The position numbers and the translations under genes are program-made. Under the pieces are notes generated by a model that saw only the letters and a list, made by a program, of their open reading frames with translations, was not told the DNA's origin and made no database searches. A stretch of 45,816 bases of DNA from positions 1-45,816 of IMG/VR virus record IMGVR_UViG_3300032225_000723. One strand, written 5' to 3'. The stretch comes from a virus. Taxonomy: Duplodnaviria > Caudoviricetes. Position 1 is the first letter of the stretch; each line of letters starts with the position of its first letter. This document shows positions 6,613 through 37,841 of this stretch, piece by piece.

Positions 6613-6696
6613 TGAGTCTCATTCGGTGCTTGCACTGAGTGAAAAAAGAAGTAAGAGGTGCGATGAAAGAGCCTCGGTTTTCTAGAAACCAAAATG

Positions 6697-6981
6697 TTCC
6701 GATGTGCGATAGCAGAGCATCGTTAAACAAGTGGCTGAGTAACTGGTGACTCGCAGTGATAGCACCAGTAGGGTAGATAAGGCTAGTAGGCTCTGTGCGT
6801 GGATACGAGAACACAACCGAACGAGATAACAACCCTGACCGCTTTGACCTGACGGTGACAACGTCAGCGAGTGCGACAGTTACTCAGCGATGAGTTGTTC
6901 TTTCCGATGTGCGACTCCGAGAGCATCGATAAATAAATGCGGATATACGTGCGATAGCAGAGCGTAGAAAAACAAGTGGCT
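6697..6981 (+). repeat. Three imperfect repeats forming hairpins with conserved loop TGCGA...GAG
   Basis: CGATG-TGCGATAGCAGAG-CATCG (6700-6722), CGATG-TGCGACTCCGAGAG-CATCG (6905-6928), TACG-TGCGATAGCAGAG-CGTA (6946-6966). Confidence 0.75.
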
Positions 6982-7089
6982 CGTGAGATTTAATCTCATT
7001 GCACACGACTAGCAACCCACCTACAACATTCGGGTGCTGACTGTGTGCAAGAGGATGCAATCTCGCATCTTTTTGTGGAGGCTTAAACC

Positions 7090-7281
7090 ATGACGATTAA
7101 TACATTTAATGCAGTAGGCATTGCCGAGGGTTTCATTGAGGCTGACTCGGAGGAGCAAGTGCTTGAGGCTTGGCAGTATCTAGTTGACTCAGGCATCGTG
7201 TGGCAGTTGCAAGGTTGGTTCGGACGTACTGCGAACGAACTCATCGAGCGTGGTTTCATCACTGCTCGTTCATCTAACTAA
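7090..7281 (+). CDS. Conserved small early phage protein
   Basis: 63 aa; GGAGG RBS; AWQYLVDSGIVWQLQGWFGRTA motif recurrent in phage early genes. Confidence 0.8.
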   Translation: MTINTFNAVGIAEGFIEADSEEQVLEAWQYLVDSGIVWQLQGWFGRTANELIERGFITARSSN

Positions 7282-7290
7282 GGAGGCATC

Positions 7291-7482
7291 GTGAAAAAAC
7301 TTTTAGAAAGTTTGGTTGTTGTTGTTTCACTCATCGTGTTCGTTCTCTTTCTGTTCGTGTTCATTCTCGATTGGACAGGCGGTTGCGGTGAGACGTACGA
7401 GTATGCGAACGGCACACTGCATCAAGGCGAGTGTGTTGGTCGTGAGTTCTTAAATTCTTATATCAAGGAGGTGTTCAAATGA
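7291..7482 (+). CDS. Small membrane protein
   Basis: N-terminal TM helix; AGGAGG RBS. Confidence 0.7.
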   Translation: MKKLLESLVVVVSLIVFVLFLFVFILDWTGGCGETYEYANGTLHQGECVGREFLNSYIKEVFK

Positions 7483-8042
7483 GCACACGTGAAGATTGGT
7501 TAAACCAAGCAGTAGAAGAGTTGCGCCCTGTGTTCGATGCGAGTGGCTTTGCCTTACCCGCAAACATTCGTGTCACGTGTGGCTTTCCATCCCGCCATGC
7601 ACGTTCGCTTAATCGTGCCATCGGTGAGCACTGGTCTGACAAGGCATCGTCTGACGGTACTCATGAGATTCTTATCTCACCAGTGGAGGCTGACCCTTTC
7701 GAGGTGTTCGGTATTCTCGTGCACGAGTTGGCTCACAGTGCGACTGACGGTGACGGTCATCGTGGTCGTTTTCCATCATGCGTTAAAGCGTTGCACCTTG
7801 AGGGCAAACCGACTAGCACCAAGGTCGGTCAACGGTTCAGAGATAACTTCGGTGCTCTCGTTGAGTCGTTGGGCATCTACCCTCATGCTCGTTTAAACGT
7901 TGGGGCTAATCGCAAGACTCAATCGACACGCATGCTCAAAGCATCGTGCCCCGCTTGTGGCTACACGATTCGTCTCACCAAGACTTGGGCTGACAGAGGC
8001 TTGCCTACTTGCCCAGTTGATGCAGTTACTTTTGTTCTTTAA
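7479..8042 (+). CDS. SprT-like zinc metalloprotease
   Basis: HELAH...GH metal-binding motif and C-terminal CPAC...CP zinc ribbon. Confidence 0.8.
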   Translation: MSTREDWLNQAVEELRPVFDASGFALPANIRVTCGFPSRHARSLNRAIGEHWSDKASSDGTHEILISPVEADPFEVFGILVHELAHSATDGDGHRGRFPSCVKALHLEGKPTSTKVGQRFRDNFGALVESLGIYPHARLNVGANRKTQSTRMLKASCPACGYTIRLTKTWADRGLPTCPVDAVTFVL

Positions 8043-8069: not shown

Positions 8070-9554
8070 GTGAATACAAACCATATCAAACTCGCTTTAT
8101 CAAAACTCTCTCAACCAGTTCTCAATGCAGTGCTAGTCAATCATGGCTTTGCAGTTGAGGCAAACAAGACTAATGCCATCACACTCATCGAGGACTTAAT
8201 CAACAACGGCAAGGTCACTCTCTCTCAGGTGCAGAGCACACAGGCAACGGCAGTCAATTCTGTTGCTACCAGTGCGAACGTTCCTGATGACATCCGCAAG
8301 AAGTTACTCAGCGCACAGGCTGAAGTTGCCAATGCAGTTGCAGAGGTCGAACGTGTTCGTGAAGTTGCGAATCGTTTGCTCGATGACAACCTCAAGCAAC
8401 AGAATGCGAACGACAAAAAGTTCAACGAGTTGACTACTCGTTTGAACAACGAGTTGAACGCAGTGCAAGGTGTTGACTACAACAAGGTCGAGTCTGCAAT
8501 TGCAAGCAGTGTTGCAAAGTCTTTCAGTGCATTCCGCAAGGTCACACCGAAAGAAGAGTTGGTCACCATCGCCAGTGCATTGCCTGTATGCGAACGCAAA
8601 CTGGTCAAGGACGTGTTCACTGGTCAGCAGTTGTCATACGAGCACAAGGGTGAGGTGATTGACTTCTCGAACAACCTCATCGATGTGTGGAACGATTCAT
8701 CTGCTCCCGCTCGTGTCGATGACTACGTGTTCAATGCAGAGCACTTGCATCAGACCTTGTGTGCGCTTGACGGTTCGTTGCCTGACAACGTGTGGCTTGC
8801 GGGTGAGCGTGGCACTGGCAAGACAGAGTTCGTGACTCAAGTTGCATCACGTCTTGGTCGCAGACTTTTCAAGGTGTCATTCGATGAGTCAATCGAGCGC
8901 ACTGAGTTCATCGGTGGCAATACGATTCTGAACGGCAACGTGGTGTGGAAAGAGGGCATCATCACTCAAGCAATCCAACACACTGGCGCAATCGTTCTGC
9001 TCGATGAAATCGGTTTTGCTCGTGCACAGAATCTCGCAGTGTTGCATGCAGTGACAGAGCCATCGCCTCATCGTGCTCTCGTTATCTCTGAAACTGGTGT
9101 TCGCATTCCAGTTGCATCGCACGTTGTGTTCTTCTGCGCTGATAACTCGAACGGTCATGGTGATGCGACAGGAAACTTTGCGGGTGTGCGTGACCAAAAC
9201 ACTGCGTTCATTGACCGCTTTAGTTACACACTGGAGTTCGAGTACTTGCCACACGATGCAGAGGTCGCATTGTTGTGCACACGTACTGGCATCCCTCACG
9301 ATGCAAGCAACGTGTTGGTGACGTTCGCTAACACTGCTCGTGAGAAAGCACGTGCGGGTTTGTTAACTCAACCTCCATCACTGCGCCAGTTGTTTGCGTG
9401 GGCAAGAGCAATACAAAAAGGTGTGCCAGTTTCAATCGCATTCGAGAATGCCATCGTCAACAAGTTCCCCGCAGACTGCGAGGCTGAGTTGCGTGGTGTG
9501 TTCAGTGCAACGATTGATGTTGGTTCGTTGAAATCTTTTCTCGTTAAGAAGTAA
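8070..9554 (+). CDS. MoxR/CbbQ/CobS-type AAA+ ATPase
   Basis: Walker A GERGTGKT, Walker B LLDE, AFIDRF arginine finger, SLRQL sensor 2; coiled-coil N-terminus. Confidence 0.9.
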   Translation: MNTNHIKLALSKLSQPVLNAVLVNHGFAVEANKTNAITLIEDLINNGKVTLSQVQSTQATAVNSVATSANVPDDIRKKLLSAQAEVANAVAEVERVREVANRLLDDNLKQQNANDKKFNELTTRLNNELNAVQGVDYNKVESAIASSVAKSFSAFRKVTPKEELVTIASALPVCERKLVKDVFTGQQLSYEHKGEVIDFSNNLIDVWNDSSAPARVDDYVFNAEHLHQTLCALDGSLPDNVWLAGERGTGKTEFVTQVASRLGRRLFKVSFDESIERTEFIGGNTILNGNVVWKEGIITQAIQHTGAIVLLDEIGFARAQNLAVLHAVTEPSPHRALVISETGVRIPVASHVVFFCADNSNGHGDATGNFAGVRDQNTAFIDRFSYTLEFEYLPHDAEVALLCTRTGIPHDASNVLVTFANTAREKARAGLLTQPPSLRQLFAWARAIQKGVPVSIAFENAIVNKFPADCEAELRGVFSATIDVGSLKSFLVKK

Positions 9555-9563
9555 GGAGGCTAC

Positions 9564-10691
9564 ATGTTAGGTACTGACGTTAAGCGTGGTGTCGCATCAA
9601 CACTAGAGCGTGTGTTCAATTCAAATGGCGAACGGTTCGACAAGTTAGAAGTCTTGTGGACAGGGCGCACTGCGGGAATCATCTTCAATCGTACGTTGTT
9701 CAAGTGCGATGCCAAGGTGCTCTTCCCCGCCATTGATGAGACCGCACAAATCCCCAACGATACTTTCAATAACCTCATCGGGTATGCGTTGCATGAGTTG
9801 GGTCATGCATGGTTCACCGATAACAAACCTTGGGACGATGCACGTAATCGTCATGGTCACTTTGTGAGCAATCTCATCAACGGTCTTGAAGACCCACGCA
9901 TTGAGCGTAAGGTCATCGAGTCAGGTCGTGCGCCAAACAGTCGTGCGTTGTTTGAGAATCTTCTTAACTCTGTTCTCAAGCGTGATGGTTACGTTGAGGC
10001 TGATGACAAAAAGAACATTCCCTTTCTGCTTGCAGTTGAGGGTAGACGTTTAAACGGTTATCAAATCAACGTTTCAAACATCATCAACGATTCACCTTGG
10101 GCAAAGCATTTGCACTGGGCACTCAAACGTGCAAGCCAAGCCAAGGACACCGCAACGATTGTGAAGATTGCAATCGAGTTGTTCAAACGTATCAAGGAAC
10201 AAGAGCAAGCGGGTAAGTCAGAGGGCAACGAGAAGTCTGACGAGGGTCAACCTCAACAGGGTGACGGTCAAGACGGTCAGCCACAGGGTGACAAGCCCAG
10301 TGACAAACCTAGTGATGGTCAGCCTAGTGACAAGCAAGACGGTGACAAGCCAAAGCAAGACGGTGAGAACGGTCAGCCTGATGGTGAGGGTGACGGTCAA
10401 CCTGACGGTGACGGTGAGCAAGGTGACGGTTCTAATGGCTCTGACAGTGGTGATGGTCAGGACGGTCAGGACGGTCAGCCTAGTGAGTCAGACGGTGAGT
10501 CAGAGGGTGACTCGCAAGATGGCGAGGGTGGTGGTAACGGCAAGAGCGATACAAGTTTTGATGGTGGTCGTGATGTAGAACCAAGCGACTTCATTCAAGG
10601 CGAGTTGACCAAGCACTCATCGAGCGCAGACAACGTGACAAGCAGACCGTCAGTTGGCAAGCCTCGTGTTGAAACTTTTAATTGGAGGTAA
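9564..10691 (+). CDS. CobT-N-like metallopeptidase-motif protein with acidic G/D/Q linker
   Basis: HELGH and NGLEDPRIER motifs; follows the AAA+ gene; low-complexity GDGQ tail. Confidence 0.75.
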   Translation: MLGTDVKRGVASTLERVFNSNGERFDKLEVLWTGRTAGIIFNRTLFKCDAKVLFPAIDETAQIPNDTFNNLIGYALHELGHAWFTDNKPWDDARNRHGHFVSNLINGLEDPRIERKVIESGRAPNSRALFENLLNSVLKRDGYVEADDKKNIPFLLAVEGRRLNGYQINVSNIINDSPWAKHLHWALKRASQAKDTATIVKIAIELFKRIKEQEQAGKSEGNEKSDEGQPQQGDGQDGQPQGDKPSDKPSDGQPSDKQDGDKPKQDGENGQPDGEGDGQPDGDGEQGDGSNGSDSGDGQDGQDGQPSESDGESEGDSQDGEGGGNGKSDTSFDGGRDVEPSDFIQGELTKHSSSADNVTSRPSVGKPRVETFNWR

Positions 10692-10696
10692 TCATC

Positions 10697-11506
10697 GTGG
10701 CTACATTAATCAAATCAGAATGTGAGCGTAACTTTTCTTTTCAGTTCAACGCACAACCTAGTGGTCTCGGTGCTACTCGTGCCAACCTCTTGCGCCTATT
10801 GCGTTCGCTTGACCTCGTAGGTTGGAACACACACGAGGAGTCAGGACGTTTAGACCGTAAAGCGTTTACACGTTTTGCTACTGGCAGTACCGCAGTATTC
10901 AGCAAGCGTGTGCACGTTGATGCCGAGACTTCAGCAGTATCAATCTTGATTGACTGTTCGGGTTCGATGAGCAATGGTGGTTTGATTCAGACTGCCGAGG
11001 CTTTGACTATCCAGTTGTCACGCATCCTCGACAAAGCGAACGTTGAGTTCAACGTCACTGGGTTCTACGGTGAAGATGGTCGCATTCGTTCAGAGGCAAG
11101 TGGCGCAGTCAAGACTGACGTGAGCATCAAGTACGAGCGCCCTACATTCGTACCGTTCAAGACTTGGAAAGATTCACTGCAACGTGCATCTGCTAAGTTG
11201 GGTTCGATACATCAGTGGGCACAGTCAGCAACACCTGACTACTCATCAATCAGTATCACGATTGAAGAGTTGGCGCAACGTCAAGAGCAACGCAAGATTT
11301 TGTTCTTGCTCACTGATGCCAGTGGTTACAACAAGGCTCACATGAAACACTTGCAGTCAGTTGCTGACAAGTTGAATGTGAAGATTGTCGCAATCGGTAT
11401 TGGTCGCACTGATGTCAAGGAATGCTTTCGCTCAAGCGAGAACGTTACGAGCATCGATGGTCTTGCATCTGCATCGTTTAACAAGTTGCTAAAGGAGTTG
11501 CAATGA
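10697..11506 (+). CDS. VWA-domain protein (CobT C-terminal-like)
   Basis: SGRLD, MIDAS DCSGS, LLTDA, IGIG; GTG start after GGAGG. Confidence 0.85.
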   Translation: MATLIKSECERNFSFQFNAQPSGLGATRANLLRLLRSLDLVGWNTHEESGRLDRKAFTRFATGSTAVFSKRVHVDAETSAVSILIDCSGSMSNGGLIQTAEALTIQLSRILDKANVEFNVTGFYGEDGRIRSEASGAVKTDVSIKYERPTFVPFKTWKDSLQRASAKLGSIHQWAQSATPDYSSISITIEELAQRQEQRKILFLLTDASGYNKAHMKHLQSVADKLNVKIVAIGIGRTDVKECFRSSENVTSIDGLASASFNKLLKELQ

Positions 11507-22274: not shown

Positions 22275-22536
22275 AGATGAGAAAAAACATTTCAGACGAG
22301 TCGCAGAACTTGGTTGCATTCTCTGCTGGCACATCGGCTACGATGGAACACCCTGTGAAATACATCACATTAGAAGAGGTGGTAGACGAGACGATGCGCC
22401 TGTTATCGGACTATGCCCCGAACACCACCGTGGAAACACGGGAATCCACGGGTTAGGACGTAAAGGCTTTGAGAAAAAATGGGGAACAACAGAAGAAATT
22501 CTGTTGGGCTTCACCAATCATTTACTTAAACTTTAA
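22264..22536 (+). CDS. Ref-family (recombination enhancement) HNH nuclease
   Basis: VAELGCILC...EIHHIR...IGLCPEHHRG...GIH. Confidence 0.8.
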   Translation: MATKDEKKHFRRVAELGCILCWHIGYDGTPCEIHHIRRGGRRDDAPVIGLCPEHHRGNTGIHGLGRKGFEKKWGTTEEILLGFTNHLLKL

Positions 22537-25500
22537 TCAAATTGCTTTCGTAGCATTTTGATGCGAGCAGTAATGGCAACTTGACGGTCATGAATAGCAT
22601 CTAGCGCTTGACGTTTTGCATCTGCATCTATTGTGGTGGAGTTGGTAATGGCAATTTGCATTTGACGTAAACGTTTCATGTCCTTGTCAATTAAATTGAC
22701 ATAATTCTTTAAGCCATATAGTTTGCCGTGGTCTTGCAGATACTCTTTTAAATCTTCGTTATTGCCAGTGCGCTCCAAGACATTCATAGTGCGAGTGATT
22801 TGGTCAATCTCGCTCTTCATATCATAGTAAGCGGAGACTGTGCCCGAATCGGAGGCAAAGAATCGCTTAATCACAGGCATCTGCTCTAGCCTCATACTAG
22901 CCTTAACAGGGTCACCTTGTCCACGATAAACTGCATCTAGCAGTTGCATTGCATAAGTACCCATTGTTCCTGTGTAGCCACGGATAAGGTTCTCAATCTT
23001 GATAGGTGAAGTTCCTGTCGCTGCCCCCAAGTCTTTAACGAACTGGGAAGTACCCGCATTGGATTGAAACTGAGGCGCAACGTCTTCCATGCCACGTCCA
23101 ACCACTGGCTCACCAGTAAAGAACGAGTAGTTGGCTACGTTCTCTACAATTGGTACGAACGCTTGTGGGATTGGATTGAACTGCAAGGTGCTCATTGCAT
23201 TGCGGAACAGAGCCTCTTTTAAATCTTTGCCTGTATCGTTTCCAAAAGCGGTTTCAAGCACACGCTCTGGCAGTACTTTAAATACCACACCCAATTCAAA
23301 TGGGATTGGGAATCGGAAAGGCTTGCCGTTGATAGACAGTGCTGGAACAATCCAGTAGTTATCACGCTCTTCTTTGTTGAGTTTTTTGTACTCATCATCG
23401 TCAGAGACCATGAACCAGTAAAGCATGGACATGCCCATCATTGTCAGGGCACGAGAGGCAAATGCTTTCTTCATTACGTCTGCATTTTCGGTAGCCATTT
23501 TGCCCCAACCCGAACGGTAGAGAATGTCAAGACCTTGAACACGTGCGTTAAAGAACGGAACCATTGCTGACAGAACACGGATAACTGCGTTGTTACCTTT
23601 GCGGGAGAAGTTAAGAACTTCCATTGCTTGGTAGAATGCTTCTGCTTCGCTACCAGTACGCTCAAGGGTGCGTTTATACACCTCTGCACGAGTTGCCATA
23701 TCCGATGCATGTGAGCCATGTTCCAATGCATCCCAAAATGCAGTCAGTGGTAACAGGGCTTTTTCTTGCGAGGTTCTTGCGCCACCACGTTTACGGAGTT
23801 CTTTCTCTACCATCTTAGCGGTAGAGGCAACGTCACCTGAGAAGTCATAGCCAGTTAAACCAGCACGAGCCAAAGCAGATGCTTCAGGAGATTGGTTTGT
23901 CAGCGTCTTTGTAAACTGTTTAAACGTATCAACGATAGGAGTCATGCCCGTACCGCTGGTAATCCACGCTTGCAATGAGTCACGACCTAAGTTAGCAATC
24001 ATAAAACCGGGGTCTTTGGTCACAAAGTTACGCAACAAATTGGCTGGAGCGGCAAGCCAAGATAGGAATTCCATCTGAGGAAGGTTTAAACCCTTCATAG
24101 ATTCCACCAGAAGCGGGTCAGCAACTCGGTAGTACTTGGTCAAACCTTTTTCTTTAACGGTAACAATGTCTGAACCAGTAACTCCAAGCGGAACTTCTTC
24201 TGCTAACTCCATGCGTACGGCATCACGTACGACTCTATTGGCGGCTTCGTTCTTCATGCCAGCCTCAATTGCGGCACGTGCGTTACGAACGATAGTCTCC
24301 ATGAAGTCAGCCAATTCAGCCTCGCCACCCTTGAGTTTCTTAGGTTTAGCGACACCAGCAAGGGCAGAGAACACACGAGGACCAGCCGTTGTTTCGCCAT
24401 CCAATTGACGGTAGAAAGGAATGTAATCCCAGTTTTCAGTCCACAGTTTTGCCTCTTTGTCAGAGATAACTCCTGTGTCTTTCATGTAATTGACCAAGCC
24501 TTGGTTGTACTTTTGATACTCGTTGAACACGTCCTTGAACTCAGGGAACTGTTGTTCTAACTTGTTGCCGTAATCAATGTCTTCTTTGGTAAACAACTGC
24601 TCACGACCATCAGCCAATAGACGTTTACCACGTTTTGTGCCAGCGTAAAACTGGAATGCTTGGAAGATGTCAGGATTGTTGTACTGCATCAATGGCTCAA
24701 GGATTGGAATCAAACCTTTAACTTTGCCATCCAAATCGCTTACATATGTGTAGCCCTTATCGTAGACAGGCACACCATCACGGAAAGAAGATGCCGCAAC
24801 ACCAGCCGCACGGTCAGATTGGAGGGCAGCCGCAATTGCAGAGTTCTCAGCCAACAACTGGTCAGCACCAAACTTCTCACCAATTGCTCGGCTTAAACGC
24901 TCAATGCCTTCATACTTGTTAAGGAATGCCTGACGGAAACGAGCAATAGCCGTAGGAGAAATGGCATCCATCAACCGTTCTACAAATCCTTGTTCTACTC
25001 GTTTATGGGTAGTCGCATTAATGCGATTCTGGATAGCAGGGTCAATGTTTAAACTTTTACGTTGAAAACGGATGTCTGCGTCTTCGGTAGGCTTTTGATT
25101 AAACGCAGATTTAATTTGGTTTGGCTTGAATGCCACCCAATCTCTGCCATCCTTCATGCCATCATATCCACCAGCCTGTATGACTCTTGTCATCGCATCT
25201 GTTGGAAACGTAATATTTGGGAATCGCCCTTGCTTAAAAGTCGCTACCTTTTCATTAATCCAGCCATCTCCAAGTGTTGGATTGTCTGCCCTTAATTCTT
25301 TTTCAAACTGCTCAACCATTGCTTGGGTGTGCACAGTCTTTTGTCCATAAGGGTATGGCTTTTTAATGCTCAAGAACGCTGGAATAATTTCTGCGCCTTC
25401 TTCTGCGCCAGCATATCGGTTCGCATCTTCAATGTCATGGGTAAAGTAATACCCATCAGGATTGCCAGTTCTATTTTTCTTAGGCGATGGTTTAAATTCA

Positions 25501-28500
25501 TTGCCTTCAAAGTTTGATGTTGCGTGATAAACCGCCAATGGATTGCCATCATTGTCTACAACTTTGCTGTTACCAAACCAGCGTTTAAACTCAGTAGTCT
25601 TTGGCGCTCTTAGTTGGAACTGCTCCCCTTCTTCGGCTGTTCCTCCAGTTGTTCCTTCGCTTGGCTTGTTCCATCCATATTCTTTTCCAAACTCTTCGGC
25701 AATGGAGTCGTAATCCTTGCGCCAATTGTCAAGGGTTGGTTGTATATCGGTGAGTTGTCGGGGGCTAAATCTTTCAAGGTAACCTTTGCCATCTGGATTT
25801 TCCTTCCAATTGTTGTATATGTAAGCGCTCTCAGCACGGAATGGGGTAATCGTAAACTCTACTTTATCACCACCGAACTTCTCTAGGGCAGTTTGTAATG
25901 TATCAATGTATGGCGCATCCTTCATAAAGAATGGTTTGCCATCATCTCCACGGAAATTAATAAAGTCAAATGAGTTGTCTACACGGGTAAATCCAACACC
26001 CGGCATCACCTCATCAAGATGTTTAAACAGGCTTTCTTCAAAGTCTTGGGTAATGTCCTGATTAACTGTGACCTTGTAACCTTTGCTTGCCATTTTGCCA
26101 CTGGCAGTTGGGTCAGCACGATACCAAGGAACTGCATCTTGTTTGGTTACGTAGCCAATAATTGCGGCAGTCTTGTCTGCAACGTCAGTAACGTGACCTT
26201 TCTCGTCCTTAGTTAGAACAAGTTTAGTGATGACGTTAGGGGCAATTTGGTTCTCGTAAGCACCAATAGAGTTTTGACTGCTGTAGAGTACGCCTTCGTT
26301 AAGCAGTTTAAATATCTTACTTTCGCCATCTTCGGTTTCAAAGATGTTGCGAACTGCACGATTGAACTCATCTTGTTGTTTGCGAGGCGCATTGTGGATG
26401 CCTTGGAGCATATCAATGCTGGTCGATGGGCGAGATTCCCAAGTAATGTTAGCCGTTGCACGGTTTACATAGTCAGAAAAATCGAGGGAGTTAGGTTTGA
26501 AATCCTTTTCCTTGCCTTCTGCTTTGGCTTTTTGATATTCAGTTGTGTTTTTAATGTATGTCCACAGAACGGCTTGAATTTGACGTGGCAATAGTTTCTC
26601 GCCAGCCTGAGTCAGATTGCCTTCCTTGTCATACTTGGCAGTACGCTTTTCATTGGCATCAGCAATTCTGCGAATCAAGTCTTTTGCGTACTTATATTGG
26701 GTAGCGGAAACAGAATTAGCCCCGCCTTCTTCCCTGTCTTCTGAATGAGGGTAGCCAAACAAACGCATCATCCAACGGTCAATCGTGGATGCATCCTCAA
26801 AAGTATCTGTTTTAAACGTGCCATCGTGCAAGTTTTGGTAGAAGTTCATCAACTTGTCTTCTACACCAGCAAGGTTTGTATTGAATTCTTTAGCCTTAAG
26901 AATTTCAGGGATGACTTTGGCGGTTGTCTCAGGGAAACGACCAGCATAGGCGGTAATATCACCTTTAGCCAATTGAGCCATAGACTTAATCACGGCAGTG
27001 ATGTTGCCACCTAGACTGTTTGCCTGTGAATATAAAGCGGTCAGACGAACAATCTTTTCCATCAAGTCTTTGTCGCCATGAGCAATATCAGCAATAGAGT
27101 CACCACTGCGTTCATACCAATCTTTGGACTTATCATACATAGAGTATGGGTGCTCAAGGAGGTTAGTCATGCGTTTGACTAAAGCGGTACGGTCTTTAAC
27201 GGTACGTGCATCAGGAGGCGCTCCAACAAGGTTGTCACCAATCTTGCGAATGGTTTCCTTTTGAAACTTCTCTTCCTCTGGTACGGCTTGTGGTTTTGGA
27301 GCCTTAATCTTGGCTTCGCCACGTTCAACCTTTTGGAAAATATCTTCTGCGGATTTAAAGCCGTTGAGTTTAAATGCGTTCAGCAGCGCCTTGAACAAGT
27401 CTGATAGACGTTTAAACAGGTTACCAATTAACCCGGCTGGCGGTGAAGTTCTAGAATAATTTGCAAACGCTTCGGCAATTGCTTCTTCAGCAATGAAATC
27501 ATCAAACCCTTTGAGACCACCAGTACGTTCTTTAAAGTCAGCCTTGTAAGACTCATAGACATCAGGCTTGATGTATTGCTTAATCCAATCGGACTTGGCT
27601 TTGTTCTTTAAAGTGTTCCATTCGCCATCTGTAAATGCACCTAGATTCTTAAGCGCATGGATGGATTCATGGCGCAAAGTACCCATTGGGTTTTCAGCAT
27701 TGTAAGCAATCTTGATGAGTTCACGAACGTAAGACCCGTCAGCCTGTCCGTCTGCAATGCTTTTGACAATGTTTAAACCGACACGCTCCAAACCAAAACG
27801 TTTTAGAGTTGGTAATAGCGACTGACGAATCTTTTCAAAGTTCTCTTCGACCTTTGGTGTGTACATGCTGGCACGGACTTCAATGCCTTTTGGCGCATTA
27901 CCAGCACGTCTTTCAAGTTCTTTTTTAGCGTAAGCGGCATAGCGCTTTGGCAAAGTACCTTTGGTGGTAGGGGCAGTATCAATAATTTGCTGGAGCATAT
28001 CGTTGCTCACAACAAAGTCACCGTCCTTATTCTTACGCATTAAACCAAACTGTTCAGCCAAATCCTTTTCTTTAAAGGAGGCAACTGGCTTGCCTTCTTC
28101 ATCGTAGAAAACATGCTTTTTGTTTACAACAGGCTTCTCGCCCATTGGCACAACCTTTAATGGGTTGGTCAGATTCTGAATTTCTTTCTCGTGGAACGCA
28201 ATCTGAGCCTGTGCTTTACGAATCCGAGCACCCATGTCAGCAGATAAGGCATCGTGGGCTGGAGTTCCAAAATAGCCTTGGGACTTATTGATGTCCAAAG
28301 CGGTGTTCATGCTTTCAATGGCTTTGTTTAACTTCTCTACCTTATTACGGATAGGTTGAGCCAACTTCTCATTGATTGCCGCATGCTTTATAGAAGAGGC
28401 TTGGGCTTCTTCGGGTGTTTTAACACGGTCAAGAGTGACGCTACCGTTCTTAACTTCGTAGTTTTCTGGGACAACTCCCTGTTTAAACTCTTGATTACGG

Positions 28501-30185
28501 ATGTCAAAACCTTGCGGCAGCGCTTCAGACTTTCCAGCAAAAGCAATGTTGACTACGTTTCTATCCCGACCATCTACTTTGCGGGTGGTAATACGCTCTT
28601 CAAGGTCACCCCTGTTAATGGCATGGCGCAAAAGAGCACTGGCATCCCAGTTATCTTTAAGCCCAGAGGTGTCTTTAATATCATTAATGACACTAGTTCT
28701 CCCCATTACATCGGTGTCAAAAAACTCGTACTCAGCCTTTAAATTTTTTAAGGCTTGGTTGTACTGCTTGTCCGAGAACCGAACTGCGTTTGTGCCTTCG
28801 GGCAAAATTTGCAACGTCTTAGACTCAGGGATTTTGCGTAGCGCATCGAACGCTGAATAGAGTTGAACTGGACTCATCGCCTCTAAGTTGTCCGTCCCAG
28901 TAGTACGCATCAAGAAATCGTTGAAACCTTGAGTGCCTGTCTCTACGTTCTTGTTCTTTGCAGTTTCAATAACGGTATCTACGGTTGGTACAACCGTGCC
29001 GTCATAGCCCGTCTTATAGGTTAAGAAGTTATCCAACGCACCTTGTTTAGCCTCTGTTGTATCAGAACTGTGACGTAAAGCGTCTACATAGTCTTCTAAA
29101 GAGTAGGAAGATAAACGTGGCTTGCCGTTGTCTTTGCGGTCTTTGTTGATATACGCTATTTGGTCAGGAGTAAGTTCACCCTCAACAAAGTTACCTAATG
29201 GATTTTGGAATGGGTCGTACTTGCGCTCATTTAATAATTGTTCTTCAGGCGCTGGCAACATCAGCATTTCTGATGGGCGTGGAGGCGCTGCTGTAGGAGT
29301 TGGCTCGTTTAAACGCTCTTGAGTCTGCTGCGGGAACGCTTTGTCAAATTTATGACCAACAGTTCCAAACGCACCACCAAGTACTGCACCGCCAATAAAG
29401 TTTTCGTAATAGGCTTTACGAGCCTCTTCATCTGCAATATTTTGACCAGCCTGTAAACGTTGCAAAAATTCTTGTCCTACTTCAGTAGAACCTTCAATAC
29501 CAGCAACCTTAGTGCCAGCCAATGCATATTCTCCAGCCGTAGCCAACATGCCTTTTTTGGCAACTTCTTTGGCTACATCATCCGTAATTGATATACCAGC
29601 CTTGCCAAAGATTCGGTTAACAATTGGAAAAGCCTTAAGAGAAAAAGTGTCTAGAGCGGCTTGTGGTATAGCCGTAGCACCCGCTTTAAGAAGACTTGTA
29701 TCGGCAAGACGTGTGCCATCTTCCATTTGAGCGGCTAAGTTTGAGCCTGTATATTGCGCTGCACCAGCAGTTAAAGCACCAAGGGTAGCAGCACCAATAC
29801 CAGCAACGGCTAACTCTGGGGCGGCAATTGCGGCTGCGCCAGCACCAACAATAGGAGCAACAATGTACGGTACTGAACCGCCTAAAGTCTCTTTAAATTT
29901 GGTAAACGGGGCTTCAGTCCAACCTTCTTCGGTTGGTTTAAACATCTTTTGGGCTTTAATGTCTTGCTCACGTTTGTACTTCTCTGCTTCTTCTAAACCC
30001 ATTAGTCCAGTTTTAGCAAGAGTCAAAGCGCCTTCGCCCTTCATCCGTTCATAGGATGACTTTAAAGCGCCAGTAAAACCCGTGTCAGGTTTAACTTCTG
30101 GCTCTGTAGATACTGGGGCTTGCCAACCTTGTTCCCAAGGTTGCTTGGCTTGTTGTGACCAATTCTCTTCCCAAGGATTAGCCAT
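22533..30185 (-). CDS. Giant polyvalent virion/ejection protein (metallopeptidase-like, glycosylase-like, ART-like and LPD38-like domains)
   Basis: 2550 aa; HESIH; TIDRW...PRQIQAVLW; [12 protein letters not shown]...VYHAT...GYYFT...NQIKS; C-terminal [10 protein letters not shown]. Confidence 0.75.
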
Positions 30186-31905: not shown

Positions 31906-33210
31906 TTATTCTGGTGGTGGTTCTGAAGAATTGGTATCAATGGTTTGATTTGCCCAATAGTCATTTACTGTATTAGGGTCGCTACCAATAACATTAGGGT
32001 CAGCCTGAGTAGCAGCAGAAGTTGGCTCTCTGTAATCAGCGCTTACCCATACTGGATTATTGTTTTCATCAAAGCCAAAACCGGGGTTTAAGTTTCCGTT
32101 GTCATCGTACGGAGTTTGACCTCCCGGTCCTGTTGGGTATACATAGTTGCCATTGGCATCCATAGTCACACCACCAGTGGCTGTTGGGTCATTCTTCGTT
32201 AAGCCGTTGATGTACTTAGCAATTGCAGGGATAGACATACCCGCTGCTTTAAGGTCTTTAACCATTCCTGCAACGCCTGAAATACCACCAGCAGCAGACT
32301 GTGCGAGACTTTGTTTTGCAGAGTATGTGTTGGTTGTAGTTGCTGGCAAGCCGTTGATGATGTTCTTTTGTAGGTTGAGCATATCCTGTGGATATTTCAA
32401 TTGACGCAAATACTCGTTGTATTGAGCGTTTAAAGCCTGTTGATTCAATGCTTGTTGGTCTGCTCCAGCCTTGGATTGCGCTTGGAGGTTTGCCAAACCA
32501 TATTGAGCACCTTGAGCGCCAGCATTTGCCGCAGCAGTCTGAGCCTGAGTTGCAGCCTGTAAGCCCTGTAAACCATAGGTAGCGGCAAACTGATTGCCTG
32601 ATTGATTTAATTGCTGGGCTTGCATATTACGTGCTTGGTCAGCATTAAACTGTTGTGCCGCTTGGTTGTAGGCTTGGTTGTAGCCAGAACCAATCAAACC
32701 AGCCTGTTGAGCCAGCAAATTGTAGTTGTTTTGACCTTGCAAAATAGCCTGACGTGAACCACCGTAAGCGCCAGCCTGTGTCAATTTAGCCATATCGCCC
32801 AATTGATTAATCTGTTGCTGACGTTGTAGTGCCGCTAATTGTGGGTCAAGAGCCTTCTGAATGTACGGATTCATGTACTGTTCAGCGGCAGCCTTATTAA
32901 ATTCATTGGCAGTAATAGTGTTTGGCGTATAAGTTAACGCCTGTTCTTTATTACTTATGTCGTTTAAATTGTTTCCTGCATTTTGCAAAGATGCTGGCAA
33001 AGTCAAACCACTAAGACCACTCCATGCTTGATTTTGAAGTTCAGAAGGTCCAGCAGTCAATTGACCTTGGTATGCTGGCATTGCCGTATCAGTAAGAGCC
33101 TGTGCCTTACTAAGCATATCGCTCACATATGGTTGAGCATATGGAGAAACTGTTTGCTGGGTAGACGTGCTTGGTGTAGCGTTTAAACCGCTAGATGAGA
33201 AAAGTCCCAT
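31906..33210 (-). CDS. Ejection/DNA pilot protein, N-terminus MGLFSS
   Basis: Gln/Ala-rich; YMNPY and AGAYGGSRQ motifs typical of podovirus ejection proteins. Confidence 0.7.
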   Translation of the reverse strand: MGLFSSSGLNATPSTSTQQTVSPYAQPYVSDMLSKAQALTDTAMPAYQGQLTAGPSELQNQAWSGLSGLTLPASLQNAGNNLNDISNKEQALTYTPNTITANEFNKAAAEQYMNPYIQKALDPQLAALQRQQQINQLGDMAKLTQAGAYGGSRQAILQGQNNYNLLAQQAGLIGSGYNQAYNQAAQQFNADQARNMQAQQLNQSGNQFAATYGLQGLQAATQAQTAAANAGAQGAQYGLANLQAQSKAGADQQALNQQALNAQYNEYLRQLKYPQDMLNLQKNIINGLPATTTNTYSAKQSLAQSAAGGISGVAGMVKDLKAAGMSIPAIAKYINGLTKNDPTATGGVTMDANGNYVYPTGPGGQTPYDDNGNLNPGFGFDENNNPVWVSADYREPTSAATQADPNVIGSDPNTVNDYWANQTIDTNSSEPPPE

Positions 33211-33211
33211 G

Positions 33212-35608
33212 TTATTTCCTTACCTTTGGCATGTATTGATGAGCATCAATCTGCTTACCTTGTTTTGGGTTTCCTGTTCTGGCTTTGCGTACACGCTCCA
33301 TCATTTGATAAAGCACTTTAGCGCCAGCCTCTGAAGACCCATTACCTAAATGAGAAACCACATCAGCGGGAATGACAAACTCTTCGTTTGCAAGACGGGC
33401 TGGCTGTCTACCAGCAATGCTTGCGGGAATGTCATCAGACATGCCATCTCCCGGTCCTTTTAGCAATCTACCGCCATCGGAGTAACCGCCAAGACTAGAA
33501 ATGCCGCCTGTGTTCATGGCAATTGGCATACCTCCACCAGCAAACATATTGACTGAATTGGATGGGTCAGCGTTGTATTGTTGCGATGAAATATTTGAAA
33601 CGCTCAAGTGATTGCCATCATCAATTGTTGGCTGAATATATTGAGGCTTCATCTGCCCAAATTGATTTTGGGTAGGTTGTGTATATGGCATTTGTCCATA
33701 TGCCGCTTGAGGTTGTGAGCCAGCACTTTGTTGTGGAATATCGCCAGTAGGATATTGTTGGTTTTGCAACGGAGATTGCATGTAAGGAGGAGGAGTAAGG
33801 CTCAATAAACCACCTTCAGCCGCTTTAATATAAGTTGGATTAAGGAATTGTTGACCATAAGCACGTCCATCAATTGGTGCGTTTACGGCATTAGGATTCC
33901 AATTAAAGCCATAACCACTTGAACTTCCAGCGCCTGTAGATTGAGTGCCTGAAGTTAAGTTGTCGTAAATGCCTAAACCAGCACCAATAAGGCTAGGAAT
34001 TATTGAACCGCCACCGCCAGTTTTACTACCAGTAGTGCCAGTAGTACCAGAAGATTTCATGCCACTGCCAGTATTTTTACTACCGCCAAAAGCAGAACCT
34101 CCAAGAGCAGAGCCACCTAGTAAAGCGCCAGCCAAATTTGCTAAAGAACTGTCTGATGCTGGTTTTTCTTCTGGAGGAGGCTCTTCTGGTTTTGGACCAA
34201 ACTCTTCACTAGATTTTCCATCAGGAGTAATAAAAGTGACAGAGCCATCAACGTTAAATATGCGTTGACTTCCATCTTGTTCCAATACTGTGGTTGAACC
34301 ATCAGGGTTATTGGTAATTTTTGCTGGGTAATCTCCCGCTTGGTCACCCAAAGAAAAATCTGTTGAACCAGCAGTAGTTCCAGAAGTATCTTTTGGAGCA
34401 GTAACGTTAATAGTGCCTAAATCTGTAACGGGTTCATTGTTATAAGAAGATGGAGCGGCTTTAATCACTTCTCCGTTGGCAGTAATCCATGCTGGATTTC
34501 CTTGGGTATCAGTACCTTGCACCAATCCAAAGTTTTCAGCAGAACCTAACTGTCTACCTTGTGCATCAAATGCATTACCAGCGGCATCTACTTTAGCCAC
34601 GTTTGAAGCCTGTGTTTCAGGATACAAAGCCGCAATCAATTGATTGACGTTTTCTTCTTCTGCCGTATTTTGAACTGGAAGACCAGTTGCTGGGTCATAA
34701 ACAGTAACAGTGCCTTTTAATTGTTTAATGGCTTCTTCTGTAGGTGTTAATCCTGCATCACTTGCAGTTGCACCAGAACTAGCCAATTGTGGATAGTTAG
34801 GAGCAACGTTTTCAGTAGCCGTTGGCAATTCAGCCAAAGTCTTGTCTGTTGTTTCAAGTTCTGCCTTTTTAACAGTATCGTCAGTTGCGCTCTTATAAGC
34901 ATCATTGGCAGCACCGCCAGCATAGTTAATACCAGTACCAACAATCCCGCTTGCAATCGCTCTTTCAGCCGCAGTAGTTGCATCACCGCCACGCAAAGCA
35001 GCAGTAGTTGCAGCGCCAACCCCGCTACCAACCAATTTGTCGGCAATACTGGTTCCAGTACCGTTTAAATCGGCTTCGGCAGTAACGCCAGCGCCAACTC
35101 CAGAACCAACACCCGCAGTTAAACCACGAGTTAACGCAGCGCCAACATCTTGACCTTGAACAAGTCCAGCGCCAGTTTGTAATGCTGTTGTTGATAACCC
35201 TCTGCCTACAGCAGATGGAAGTGACTCAATGCCAGTATTGGCTCCAATATCAGTAAGGGCTTGTCCAAAAGCAGTGTCTGCCAAGCCTGATGTAATTCCA
35301 GAACCCAGTTCAGGCGCTACGTAAGAAATTGCTGCGCTAGTAAGTGCCTGTTGCACATCACCGCCATGAGCAACAACGTCCACCGCACTAATAACTGGAA
35401 GAAGTTCAAACTGTCCCGTGGCAACCGCAGCGACTTTGGCTATCGTTCCTATTGGGTCATTGACTGCCGTCTCAACAACTGTAGATACGGTATCGCCCAC
35501 AAAATTAACAACATCGCCAGCCGCCTGAACAACAGCATCGGTAACGTCACCAACGGCATCACCAACTGAACTGACTACGTCAGAGACTGCATCTGCTACG
35601 GCTCCCAT
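33212..35608 (-). CDS. Ejection protein, N-terminus MGAVADAV
   Basis: Amphipathic Gly/Ala-rich N-terminus; C-terminal GPGDGMSDDIPA...ARLANEEFVIPADVV. Confidence 0.7.
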   Translation of the reverse strand: MGAVADAVSDVVSSVGDAVGDVTDAVVQAAGDVVNFVGDTVSTVVETAVNDPIGTIAKVAAVATGQFELLPVISAVDVVAHGGDVQQALTSAAISYVAPELGSGITSGLADTAFGQALTDIGANTGIESLPSAVGRGLSTTALQTGAGLVQGQDVGAALTRGLTAGVGSGVGAGVTAEADLNGTGTSIADKLVGSGVGAATTAALRGGDATTAAERAIASGIVGTGINYAGGAANDAYKSATDDTVKKAELETTDKTLAELPTATENVAPNYPQLASSGATASDAGLTPTEEAIKQLKGTVTVYDPATGLPVQNTAEEENVNQLIAALYPETQASNVAKVDAAGNAFDAQGRQLGSAENFGLVQGTDTQGNPAWITANGEVIKAAPSSYNNEPVTDLGTINVTAPKDTSGTTAGSTDFSLGDQAGDYPAKITNNPDGSTTVLEQDGSQRIFNVDGSVTFITPDGKSSEEFGPKPEEPPPEEKPASDSSLANLAGALLGGSALGGSAFGGSKNTGSGMKSSGTTGTTGSKTGGGGSIIPSLIGAGLGIYDNLTSGTQSTGAGSSSGYGFNWNPNAVNAPIDGRAYGQQFLNPTYIKAAEGGLLSLTPPPYMQSPLQNQQYPTGDIPQQSAGSQPQAAYGQMPYTQPTQNQFGQMKPQYIQPTIDDGNHLSVSNISSQQYNADPSNSVNMFAGGGMPIAMNTGGISSLGGYSDGGRLLKGPGDGMSDDIPASIAGRQPARLANEEFVIPADVVSHLGNGSSEAGAKVLYQMMERVRKARTGNPKQGKQIDAHQYMPKVRK

Positions 35609-36078
35609 TACATTTGTCCTTCACGCTTTGGTCCAAGCACTGTAGTTACACGATAGCCACCGCCTTTGGTTTTTTGAACCGCATAGCCCATCGTTGGTTT
35701 ACCGTCTACATCGGGATTGATTTCTGAACGGTGTTTTTGGACATATTTAAAAATGCTTAATAGAGTTGGGTCTTCAAAGTCTGTAACCATGACATCAAAA
35801 CCAGCCATGTACATAGCCTTTGCATAGTCAACGCTATTATTTAAGTAATTGTTTGCTGTATCAGCGTTTAAAGCACGAAACAAAGCAGTACGGTCTTTGC
35901 CGGGATGAACAATAAAAAGGGTATTTCCTTGACGCATAAGAATAGCGCCAGATTCATGGGCTTCAGCAGTCACTGCTGCAAGCACTTGGTCTGGAGAATA
36001 CTTAGACTTTGTCTGCTTTGTAGCCTCAAGAATAATCTCAGGCGGGTCTAGCAATTTCTTTTTACTGTCAACTAGCAT
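35608..36078 (-). CDS. Putative GNAT-like acyltransferase
   Basis: 156 aa; strand/helix pattern ending YAKAMYMAGFDVMVTD...LSIF resembles a GNAT fold; sits where podoviruses often carry an acetyltransferase-like gene. Fold call is an inference. Confidence 0.45.
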   Translation of the reverse strand: MLVDSKKKLLDPPEIILEATKQTKSKYSPDQVLAAVTAEAHESGAILMRQGNTLFIVHPGKDRTALFRALNADTANNYLNNSVDYAKAMYMAGFDVMVTDFEDPTLLSIFKYVQKHRSEINPDVDGKPTMGYAVQKTKGGGYRVTTVLGPKREGQM

Positions 36079-37196
36079 TGTGCATCCTTAAAAATTGCAG
36101 CGGAATACACGTTGCCCATTCCAGCCGCAAGGCTCAAAATCAAACCACCCTTCTCTGATGGGGCTGGTTCGCTAAGAAAAACCTTGTCTTCGTCTGTACG
36201 GTTAGCAATTGCTGGCACAAAACCGTTTTTGATATTATCCAACAATAATACAGTTTCAAGCAAGCCGCTTGCCCCCATAGTATGCCCGATTCTTTGTTTA
36301 AACGATGTTGCCACAAAATCGTTCAAAATGCTAGTCAATGCATGTCTTTCTGCAATATTATTTGACTTTGTTCCTGTGCCGTGAGTCTTGACCGTTCGTA
36401 TCTTAGAGCGTTGGACTTGGGACATGTACAACGCACCTTCAATGGCTCGTTTAAATCCTTGCCCATCTTCTCGTTGACCAATTGCATTTGTTGAGTCTTC
36501 GCCTGATGTGTAAGCCCCCATGAGTCGGGCTTTAGGTTTAAACCCTGTCAGTTTCATGCTTTCTTCAGTCTCAAAGACAGCAAAGACTGCGCCTTGACCT
36601 ACATGAAAGCCATAGTTCTTCTCATCAAAAGCGCTAGGAATAATGCCAGCATCATCGTCTTTTGCCGTCAACACTGCGCCTGATTCACCAAAGAAGTTTA
36701 GTACCGCATTGGTTACCGCATCTTCCACACCTAAAACAATGACTCGCTCCATGCCATACAACTTAATCAAGTTGTAAACATCCATCATCACCTTGAGACT
36801 AGACGCACAGGCTGATGCATCAGTCATAACGTGATTGGTCACTCCACAAGCACTAGCCGTCCGTCCAGCATAAACTTGCGTCAAAGCCATTGGCAAAAAC
36901 TTGTAGGTGTAGGATAGTCGGGTTTTCCCTAAGTCTACAGGCTCTATCCCTGCAAAATGGGCATTCCCAGAAGCAAGAATAAAAGCAGTACGGCAACGGT
37001 TTTCCCGCAGCGTTTGAAGCAGTTCTTTGTCCAGCACTTTCTCAGCCAAACGGTGGGGCGCATAAATCATCCCCGTGTCTTTCCCCTTGTAGGTCTCTGG
37101 AAACCAGTGAACTCGTTGTGGAAAATGTTTTAACTCATCAATAAAATCGATGTTTTCGGTACATGCAGTGCGGGTTTCGGTAAGGTAAATCACCAA
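36072..37196 (-). CDS. Beta-ketoacyl-ACP synthase (FabB/FabF-like)
   Basis: Cys-His-His triad: DASACASS, KTHGTGT, KQRIGHTMGASG; GQGA and AAGMG motifs. Confidence 0.92.
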   Translation of the reverse strand: MVIYLTETRTACTENIDFIDELKHFPQRVHWFPETYKGKDTGMIYAPHRLAEKVLDKELLQTLRENRCRTAFILASGNAHFAGIEPVDLGKTRLSYTYKFLPMALTQVYAGRTASACGVTNHVMTDASACASSLKVMMDVYNLIKLYGMERVIVLGVEDAVTNAVLNFFGESGAVLTAKDDDAGIIPSAFDEKNYGFHVGQGAVFAVFETEESMKLTGFKPKARLMGAYTSGEDSTNAIGQREDGQGFKRAIEGALYMSQVQRSKIRTVKTHGTGTKSNNIAERHALTSILNDFVATSFKQRIGHTMGASGLLETVLLLDNIKNGFVPAIANRTDEDKVFLSEPAPSEKGGLILSLAAGMGNVYSAAIFKDAQC

Positions 37197-37477
37197 TCTA
37201 CCCCTTTGATGGCTTCTTCAACAGTGCCAGATGGCTCTTTAGTTTTGTGCAACTGTATAAAATCCCAGCATTCCCTAGCCGATTTAAACGTCATTTCTTT
37301 GCCAATTTCATCTGGAATGCCATAGATGTCACAGAAATAAATGCACATCATCATGCCATCCATACTATCTAGACCAGTATCTTTTAGGTCATCATCTAGA
37401 GTAACGATGGGCGTAAAGTCTTGATGGGACGGTATTGCCGTACGTGCCACCTTGTTAAACAGTTCAATAAAGTCCAT
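37190..37477 (-). CDS. Acyl carrier protein
   Basis: 95 aa acidic protein; LKDTGLDSMD phosphopantetheine-Ser motif; YGIPDE; overlaps the KS start. Confidence 0.8.
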   Translation of the reverse strand: MDFIELFNKVARTAIPSHQDFTPIVTLDDDLKDTGLDSMDGMMMCIYFCDIYGIPDEIGKEMTFKSARECWDFIQLHKTKEPSGTVEEAIKGVDW

Positions 37478-37520: not shown

Positions 37521-37841
37521 TCATCCAACTTTCCAATTAGTTCCGTCAGAATAGACGGGCACTTTGTTAGTTCCACCAGAGGCAACAGTTGAGCCAAACG
37601 TGGAAACGGAAGAGTCAGTTACAAAGGCTCTATACCCAACTCCAGAACCACTGGCGCTTGGAAGTGAACCAACCGTGTAAACAAGGTTTGTTGGCTGCTC
37701 GGCAACAAGCGTAGCCAATACGCTATTTTCTTGATTGAAATAAAGGCGCAGAACGTTAGTCAGTTGGTTAAGGTATAACTTGCTGAATTGGTCTTGTGGT
37801 AGCGGTAGATTGGGTACTGCTGGGGCTTGAACTTGACTCAT
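37521..37841 (-). CDS. Small virion protein
   Basis: PNLPLP...LRLYFNQ N-terminus; VPVYSDGTNW C-terminus. Confidence 0.65.
   Translation of the reverse strand: MSQVQAPAVPNLPLPQDQFSKLYLNQLTNVLRLYFNQENSVLATLVAEQPTNLVYTVGSLPSASGSGVGYRAFVTDSSVSTFGSTVASGGTNKVPVYSDGTNWKVG

Follow-up and report, generated by a model that had tools for sequence, protein, structure and literature searches.

Eukaryotic N-myristoyltransferase (NMT) lipidates the N-terminus of a protein, in amide linkage, after the initiator methionine has been removed. In Salmonella, SipB is acylated on a cysteine in dependence on IacP, a dedicated acyl carrier protein (ACP), and this acylation, though dispensable, aids insertion into the membrane (PMC5279801). 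Enzymes of the RtxC/HlyC type (PF02794) combine a GNAT-like fold with an acyl-ACP donor and a membrane-inserting target; they are reported to lack elements that contact coenzyme A (CoA) and to acylate internal lysines (PMC8339906). Altered P-loops are reported to be typical of carrier-protein-dependent GNATs such as GdvG, FeeM and SbzI, whose products are small molecules or short lipopeptides from biosynthetic clusters (PMC11685415). In podoviruses a GNAT gene commonly lies beside the internal virion or ejection protein genes, T7 gp13 being an example, and it is assigned a vague role in morphogenesis (PMC6775973). The locus described here belongs to the Caudoviricetes virus record IMGVR_UViG_3300032225_000723, a linear record that is 74% complete; the whole stretch of 45,816 nucleotides is called the window. 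The locus comprises genes for an ACP, a ketosynthase (KS) and a 156-amino acid (aa) protein with a predicted GNAT fold, followed by genes for two candidate target proteins, EJ1 and EJ2.

The ACP and KS are predicted to form an optional, private acyl-donor module feeding acylation of the N-terminus of the probable ejected protein EJ1, a reading whose chances are judged to be about even. It is proposed because the genes are chained, the ACP serine and the KS triad are present, the GNAT model has no CoA loop, the EJ1 leader opens with a small residue, and the pairing of KS and GNAT genes recurs. The results below concern anatomy and association; acylation itself is predicted from sequences and models. 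Host AcpS would prime the phage ACP, host FabD and reductases would supply and trim the chain, which the KS would build or select, and host methionine aminopeptidase would remove Met1 of EJ1. The GNAT would transfer the acyl chain to the free amine of an N-terminal residue that may be Ser or Ala as well as Gly, and the lipidated amphipathic leader may help ejected EJ1 to engage the host membrane. GNAT and target would make up a core virion module in which the optional ACP-KS pair sets the type of chain only, and phages without the pair would use a host donor.

The cassette genes are real and are chained into the ejection genes (Table 1). All five lie on the minus strand, and the starts and stops from the ACP to EJ1 overlap; for the three cassette genes such overlaps had been reported in the preliminary description of the window. 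A GTG one codon past the TTG start of the KS overlaps the ACP stop as GTGA, the overlap of the KS and 156-aa open reading frames (ORFs) is 7 nt, that of the 156-aa ORF and EJ1 is TAATG, and EJ1 and EJ2 are separated by 1 nt. The cassette was placed between tail and ejection genes, and this position holds except that an extra 106-aa gene separates the tail gene from the ACP. MW202545 has, at the position of the tail protein, a gene labelled 'phage stabilization protein'. Of the two proteins named as ejection proteins, EJ2 is assigned by its PHROG match, whereas EJ1 has no family match in Pfam or PHROG. Both lack cysteine. The arrangement is not due to chance, since the 156-aa family lies beside the KS in 51 of 80 viral KS loci, where it follows the KS, and in 76 of 80 loci from a metagenome scan.

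Table 1. Position of the cassette genes and their neighbours in the window, and of the short protein of the second phage family.
Feature	Coordinates	Strand	Basis or remark
Tail/virion structural protein, 710 aa	37838..39970	-	phrog_3287 (E 1e-59); upstream of cassette
106-aa gene between tail gene and ACP	37521..37841	-	no match in Pfam or PHROG; kept in close relatives
Divergent ACP, 95 aa, GLDSMD	37190..37477	-	PP-binding (E 0.066); phrog_28189 (E 2e-7)
KS, 374 aa from TTG	36072..37196	-	Pfam PF00109 and PF02801
156-aa protein, predicted GNAT fold, candidate acyltransferase	35608..36078	-	gp13/gp14-like slot ahead of ejection genes
EJ1, 798 aa, start MGAVAD	33212..35608	-	probable first ejected protein, by position only
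EJ2, DNA ejection protein, 434 aa, start MGLFSS	31906..33210	-	phrog_4287 (E 2e-10)
Second-family 100-135-aa protein (phrog_28689)	L367-L437, e.g. L387:1181-1525		between KS and portal

The identification of a GLDS-bearing ACP and of a FabB/F-like KS with an intact Cys-His-His triad is upheld. The Asp-Ser-x-Asp motif of the ACP (D37/S38/D40) is invariant in 95 of 95 sequences, the protein is acidic (median net charge -10), and its match to Pfam PP-binding is weak and below the curated cut-off. The ACP gene is upstream of the KS gene in 77 of 80 loci, the remaining three being cut at contig edges. The KS matches ketoacyl-synt (E 8e-12) and ketoacyl-synt_C (E 3e-17), and the triad Cys130/His272/His305 is intact in all 95 aligned sequences. 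In the KS domains, the triad and the serine-bearing acidic ACP the pair resembles AcpP and FabF/FabB of type II fatty acid synthesis, but identity is about 25% and the branch is long and separate, and the scanned ORFs of the window include no recognisable FabD, FabG or phosphopantetheinyl transferase (PPTase). Identity of the KS to the best other records of the phage collection is 23-28%. The phylogenetic tree (FastTree, 68 rows) places the KS clade apart from three host FabF/B-like sequences, on a long branch with support 100, and not in a group with host FabF/FabB. When 1.84 billion representatives were searched with a profile, a discrete subfamily of about 40 clusters ranked before the matches to modular polyketide synthases. 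The KS belongs to a distinct, mostly phage-borne subfamily.

Plasmids gave no close KS at E 1e-20. Among the annotated phages the cassette occurs in one record only, MW202545 (spring sample, host not given), so that no isolate carrying it is available; there the GenBank annotation of the KS is merely 3-oxoacyl-ACP synthase. The family is nevertheless widespread and abundant, with at least 549-569 viral stretches encoding a KS relative. The earlier observation that a PPTase is lacking is borne out: a search of the window and of five relatives with 91-100% completeness gave no ACPS-family PPTase, and its positive control matched in 10 of 14 genomes. The ACP is therefore predicted to need a host PPTase.

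An acyltransferase-type fold had been suggested for the 156-aa protein, and structural modelling agrees. The AlphaFold (AF2) model, built from 97 sequences, has a pLDDT of 93.9, and in a VIA search all 50 rows are acyl- or acetyltransferases within about one Z unit of each other (top Z 9.9, root-mean-square deviation 2.8 over 120 aa). SbzI is among the matches with Z 8.6, tied with ordinary GNATs. Foldseek results are weaker, the best E being 3e-4 and the matches interspersed with RNase E. There are 499 homologues at E 0.001, and neither the protein nor its 96 homologues examined against Pfam and PHROG receive a name there. The nearest named ESM-atlas clusters are DUF2824/Acetyltransf (0.91-0.92, 123-138 shared features), DUF2824 being the P22 gp14 family, and weak viral fold matches include 'internal virion protein A'. 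Residues S5, E39, G51, N52, A69, N71, D73, N77 and F101 are invariant in the family. The CoA P-loop Q/R-x-x-G-x-G/A is found in 0 of 95 sequences within residues 64-95, after strand 4, and in 4 of 95 anywhere. A complex prediction of the GNAT with the ACP gave a score of 0.01, which yields no verdict and is counted for neither side.

The model thus points to a GNAT, at a position that in podoviruses is commonly occupied by one. The position ahead of the ejection genes, the fold and the DUF2824 atlas neighbours are shared with the gp13/gp14-type GNAT (PMC6775973), while the window family differs in having no sequence-level family match and in being usually joined to an ACP-KS pair. The missing P-loop is compatible with, but no proof of, use of an ACP donor. 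In lacking the loop the protein is like the carrier-dependent GNATs (PMC11685415), although their products come from biosynthetic clusters and the use of a carrier by the phage GNAT is a prediction. It is also like RtxC/HlyC, with which a fold without CoA-binding elements, an acyl-ACP donor and a membrane-inserting target would be shared (PMC8339906). Unlike those enzymes, neither the window protein nor the 97 aligned members match HlyC (PF02794) at E 0.1, and the target leader has no conserved lysine.

The start of EJ1 was compared over 134 GNAT representatives at 90% identity, reduced from 296 loci by way of 195; incomplete GNATs, and lone GNATs with less than 1.5 kb of upstream DNA, were dropped. 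EJ1 begins with M-[SG]-[AG]-[VA] in 105 of 129 sequences, and an amphipathic helix, acidic and rich in Val, comes next. Residue 2 is G, S, A or T in 127 of 129 EJ1 sequences against only 7-13 of 94 for the ACP, KS and GNAT, although such residues already occupy position 2 in 358 of 585 long ORFs of the same loci, which weakens the case. No conserved Lys or Cys acceptor was found in the EJ1 leader, Cys occurring in 3 of 124. The alpha-amine therefore remains as the site, and if EJ1 is acylated, the amine freed by removal of Met1 is the likely place. EJ1 is likely, on its sequence, to be the acyl acceptor, and EJ2 is a possible second one with a weaker case. Both N-termini had been described as hydrophobic or amphipathic; this is true of EJ1 (hydrophobic moment 0.41-0.48 over residues 2-49), but EJ2 is not amphipathic (0.02-0.05 over residues 2-25). 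The comparison with IacP and SipB is close in that a dedicated ACP is encoded with a membrane-penetrating delivery machine; it differs in that the SipB site is a Cys, in that the phage cassette adds a KS and a GNAT-fold gene, and in that the machine is a phage virion (PMC5279801). The C-terminal ~90 residues of EJ1 (window 33212-33500) look kept in the distant homologue of G001, and the middle of the protein does not.

A narrower proposal, made in the preliminary description, was a myristoylation-like attachment of a beta-keto chain to Gly2 of both Met-Gly proteins. The two window proteins do begin with Met-Gly, and EJ2 homologues have Gly at residue 2 more often than any other residue (Gly 13, Ser 4, Ala 3, Asp 1; n=21). 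In EJ1 of KS-adjacent loci, however, Ser is more frequent (Ser 55, Gly 36, Ala 8, other 3; n=102), and the suggested association of the cassette with Gly2 runs the other way, Gly being commoner where the KS is not adjacent (Gly 18, Ser 8, Ala 1; n=27). The obligate Gly2 and the usual Ser/Thr6 of N-myristoylation substrates are not seen, G2 with S/T6 occurring in 11 of 129 EJ1 sequences and 7 of 21 EJ2 homologues. A beta-keto chain is a weak guess because relatives add FabA/Z-like or desaturase-like genes. The proposal is thus very improbable, and Gly-specific N-myristoylation was rejected on the excess of Ser over Gly at residue 2 of EJ1 and the rarity of G-x-x-x-S. What the predicted reaction would share with eukaryotic N-myristoylation is N-terminal amide lipidation after Met removal; it differs in having neither a Gly2 requirement nor the G-x-x-x-S consensus, and in its single small GNAT domain.

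The KS subfamily adjoins a GNAT-superfamily protein in three separate settings, namely the window family, a second phage family and a locus with HlyC genes. The last (L161), in a Burkholderiales genome bin, has HlyC (E 2e-7), ACP, KS and HlyC (E 5e-21) in a row, preceded by an outer-membrane efflux gene and followed by an ORF with GGxGxD (RTX) repeats. The locus resembles one for RTX acylation that brings its own ACP and KS (L161:3775-6021 and 6690-7550). Its KS and one further sequence, whose context is unknown, form the sister group of the freshwater phage clade (FastTree), so that a sister of the phage subfamily sits between two HlyC genes. CdiC is reportedly a toxin-activating acyltransferase of the same RtxC/HlyC kind. 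The start of the RTX ORF likewise shows a small residue and a stretch rich in Val/Ile.

The second phage family has an SU10/N4-type portal, and the order ACP-KS, 100-135-aa gene, portal recurs in 68 of 71 loci, of which many are closely related. Profile comparison of the short protein with the window GNAT gave no match, and no ESM-atlas match was found for it. In its model (pLDDT 79.5) the order of strands and helices mirrors the GNAT core, and 50 of 50 VIA rows are GNAT-type with a top Z of 7.4 to AcrVA5, a value below 8 that calls for caution. The protein models as a minimal GNAT resembling AcrVA5. About 6 kb downstream in G469, a 911-aa gene has an acidic Val/Ile leader; 17 of 26 records have a homologue of its product, a protein of ~900 aa whose M[GSA] acidic leader reads, for example, MGGVVDAIV, MGFIADIF or MAAVIDLL. 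The N-terminal reads of this family match the EJ1 leader profile at E < 0.01 in 12 of 22 overlapping reads, in a very small database and without a shuffle control, and the resemblance is one of low complexity. In one case, G471, the second-family GNAT is lacking and the protein at the position of the leader protein has a different start. In a few loci (L093, L096, L284 and L533, the last from G471) the pair or the GNAT is off its usual place and the leader sometimes has an aromatic start (MGWF, MGWI, MSGSW, MGWN); the GNAT motif has drifted in L093 and L096.

These settings also bear on the acceptor. The three genes could be an acyl-transfer unit acting on an internal residue, another virion protein, a host protein or an envelope lipid, an explanation that is regarded as improbable. 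It would suit the second-family trio, which precedes the portal ~6 kb from the leader-bearing gene, the internal lysines that HlyC-type enzymes target (PMC8339906), and the leader that persists without the pair in G429. A similar leader in both trio-bearing families argues for the N-terminus of EJ1 instead, as do the different start in the GNAT-less second-family record G471 (a single case) and the GNAT gene abutting the leader gene in the window family. A wider generalisation is tentative and somewhat less probable than not: several aquatic podovirus families would lipidate the N-terminus of the first injected protein with a tailored chain, made and attached by means of their own ACP, KS and GNAT, the podovirus gp13/gp14-type GNAT would generally be an ejection-protein acyltransferase, and the ejection machine would be a lipoprotein conduit.

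The ACP and KS had been expected to keep to the virion context, and they do not, other contexts being found in 26 of 80 viral loci; apart from the loci with a following GNAT, the KS lies in the replication region after a helicase in 25, at a contig edge in three and in a third place in one. Among the GNAT representatives 106 of 134 have an adjacent KS, and on a quick, midpoint-rooted GNAT tree adjacency changes four times, at least three of these being forced, which agrees with genes that were adjacent early and came apart repeatedly. In four records (G001, G017, G430 and G461) the pair is relocated and the GNAT is still encoded elsewhere. Most records of the genome-wide co-occurrence test are fragments; of lone-GNAT records, 1 of 20 and 1 of 16 had a KS at another place, and the GNAT was found in 1 of 5, 0 of 15 and 1 of 5 records of the genome-wide search, these also being mostly partial. 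A contig in a Parvibaculum genome bin (L162), probably phage DNA, carries the KS, the GNAT and a protein of more than 1800 aa with the same leader.

Several observations, added to the background at residue 2 and the cautions on the second family given above, weigh against the acyl-donor reading. The ACP-KS pair moves and can be dispensed with. Of 24 loci with the relocated site, 17 have the pair there and 7 do not, and in G429 (a 50-kb record, 77% complete) the GNAT and the leader are present while both known sites are empty and no KS match is found. Loss of the P-loop may be common to podovirus GNATs without a KS, and since such GNATs commonly adjoin internal virion genes, adjacency may go back to one old insertion. 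The HlyC-flanked pair occurs in 1 of 401 genomes searched of its order. Bacterial loci in two contexts (L160, L163, L165), whose KSs nest among the phage KSs (FastTree), have the pair with no adjacent acyltransferase, and no adjacent GNAT was recognised in the phage loci L021, L426, L431, L436, L447, L451, L454 and L480. Other genes stand beside the pair: one that is FabA/Z-like (E about 1e-29) follows it in L345 and L471, weak matches to FA_desaturase_2 (diiron) adjoin it in L426, L436 and L454, and a DUF2269 gene does so in L451 and L480. Since the pair relocates and can be lost, the constant part is the GNAT-EJ1 module, and ACP-KS is optional.

Much of this would be expected if ACP-KS were a movable lipid-metabolism accessory plugged into host fatty acid synthesis and the GNAT an independent gp13/gp14-like morphogenesis protein or acetyltransferase, the two being neighbours through insertion history. 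The pair in the replication region, the empty sites, the dehydratase-like and desaturase-like neighbours and the lone GNAT of G429 all fit such an accessory, as does the complete T7-like genome G472, in which ACP-KS-desaturase-like genes follow the tail-fibre region, apart from the gp13-like gene (phrog_308). It leaves unexplained why a sequence-unrelated GNAT-fold gene lies beside the KS in nearly all second-family loci, and why HlyC, ACP, KS, HlyC and RTX genes form one locus. The distance of the ACP and KS from the host FabF/B-like sequences tested also argues against it, as does the presence of the pair in late virion operons whose stop and start codons are coupled, and it is considered unlikely, though it is the foremost alternative. 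The added dehydratase-like and desaturase-like genes would, on their sequences, amount to real tailoring of the chain, which fits a custom donor and a role in host lipids alike. The acyl-transfer reading first put forward is supported by the GNAT fold without P-loop, the HlyC locus and the second family, but not as regards Gly2, which varies; the GNAT is also kept in relatives without the pair.

In the literature searched no phage ACP-KS-GNAT acylation system was found, with most subscription papers outside the coverage and with supplements (tables of auxiliary metabolic genes) that may list the genes. The words 'acyl', 'acetyl' and 'post-translational' do not occur in a review of ejection proteins (PMC8954989), and a term search of the DEV structure paper gave no mention of acylation (PMC11445570). 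The lipidation predicted here, at the N-terminal end of a virion protein that is injected, is not described in the phage papers searched. It would bear on the open question of how soluble ejection proteins packed in the capsid become a membrane-spanning channel. If the cassette does lipidate the leader, the podovirus-type GNAT gene would gain a chemistry, a common 'fatty-acid auxiliary gene' would be reclassified as one of virion maturation, and a three-gene kit for N-terminal lipidation, testable in E. coli, would be at hand.

Diiron acyl-ACP-desaturase-like genes accompany the phage ACP-KS at L426:5984-6772, L436:353-1198 and L454:6080-6889 and in L462, and phage FabA/FabZ-like dehydratases are located at L345:3038-3502, L471:6091-6522 and L529:2007-2435, beside the KS or elsewhere in the genome. 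The first internal virion protein of G472 starts with Met-Cys followed by a hydrophobic run. The bacterial copies of the pair (L160:4064-7128, L163 and L165) are downstream of DUF6345 or metallopeptidase/HEAT genes. Downstream of EJ2 in the window are a 567-aa gene and then a 2550-aa gene (minus strand), the latter encoding a polyvalent protein with the domains ART-PolyVal, DUF7178 and LPD38 that closes the ejection block (22533-30185). At 8070-11506 the window has a row consisting of a MoxR/CbbQ-type AAA ATPase gene, a 375-aa gene and a CobT-like VWA gene.

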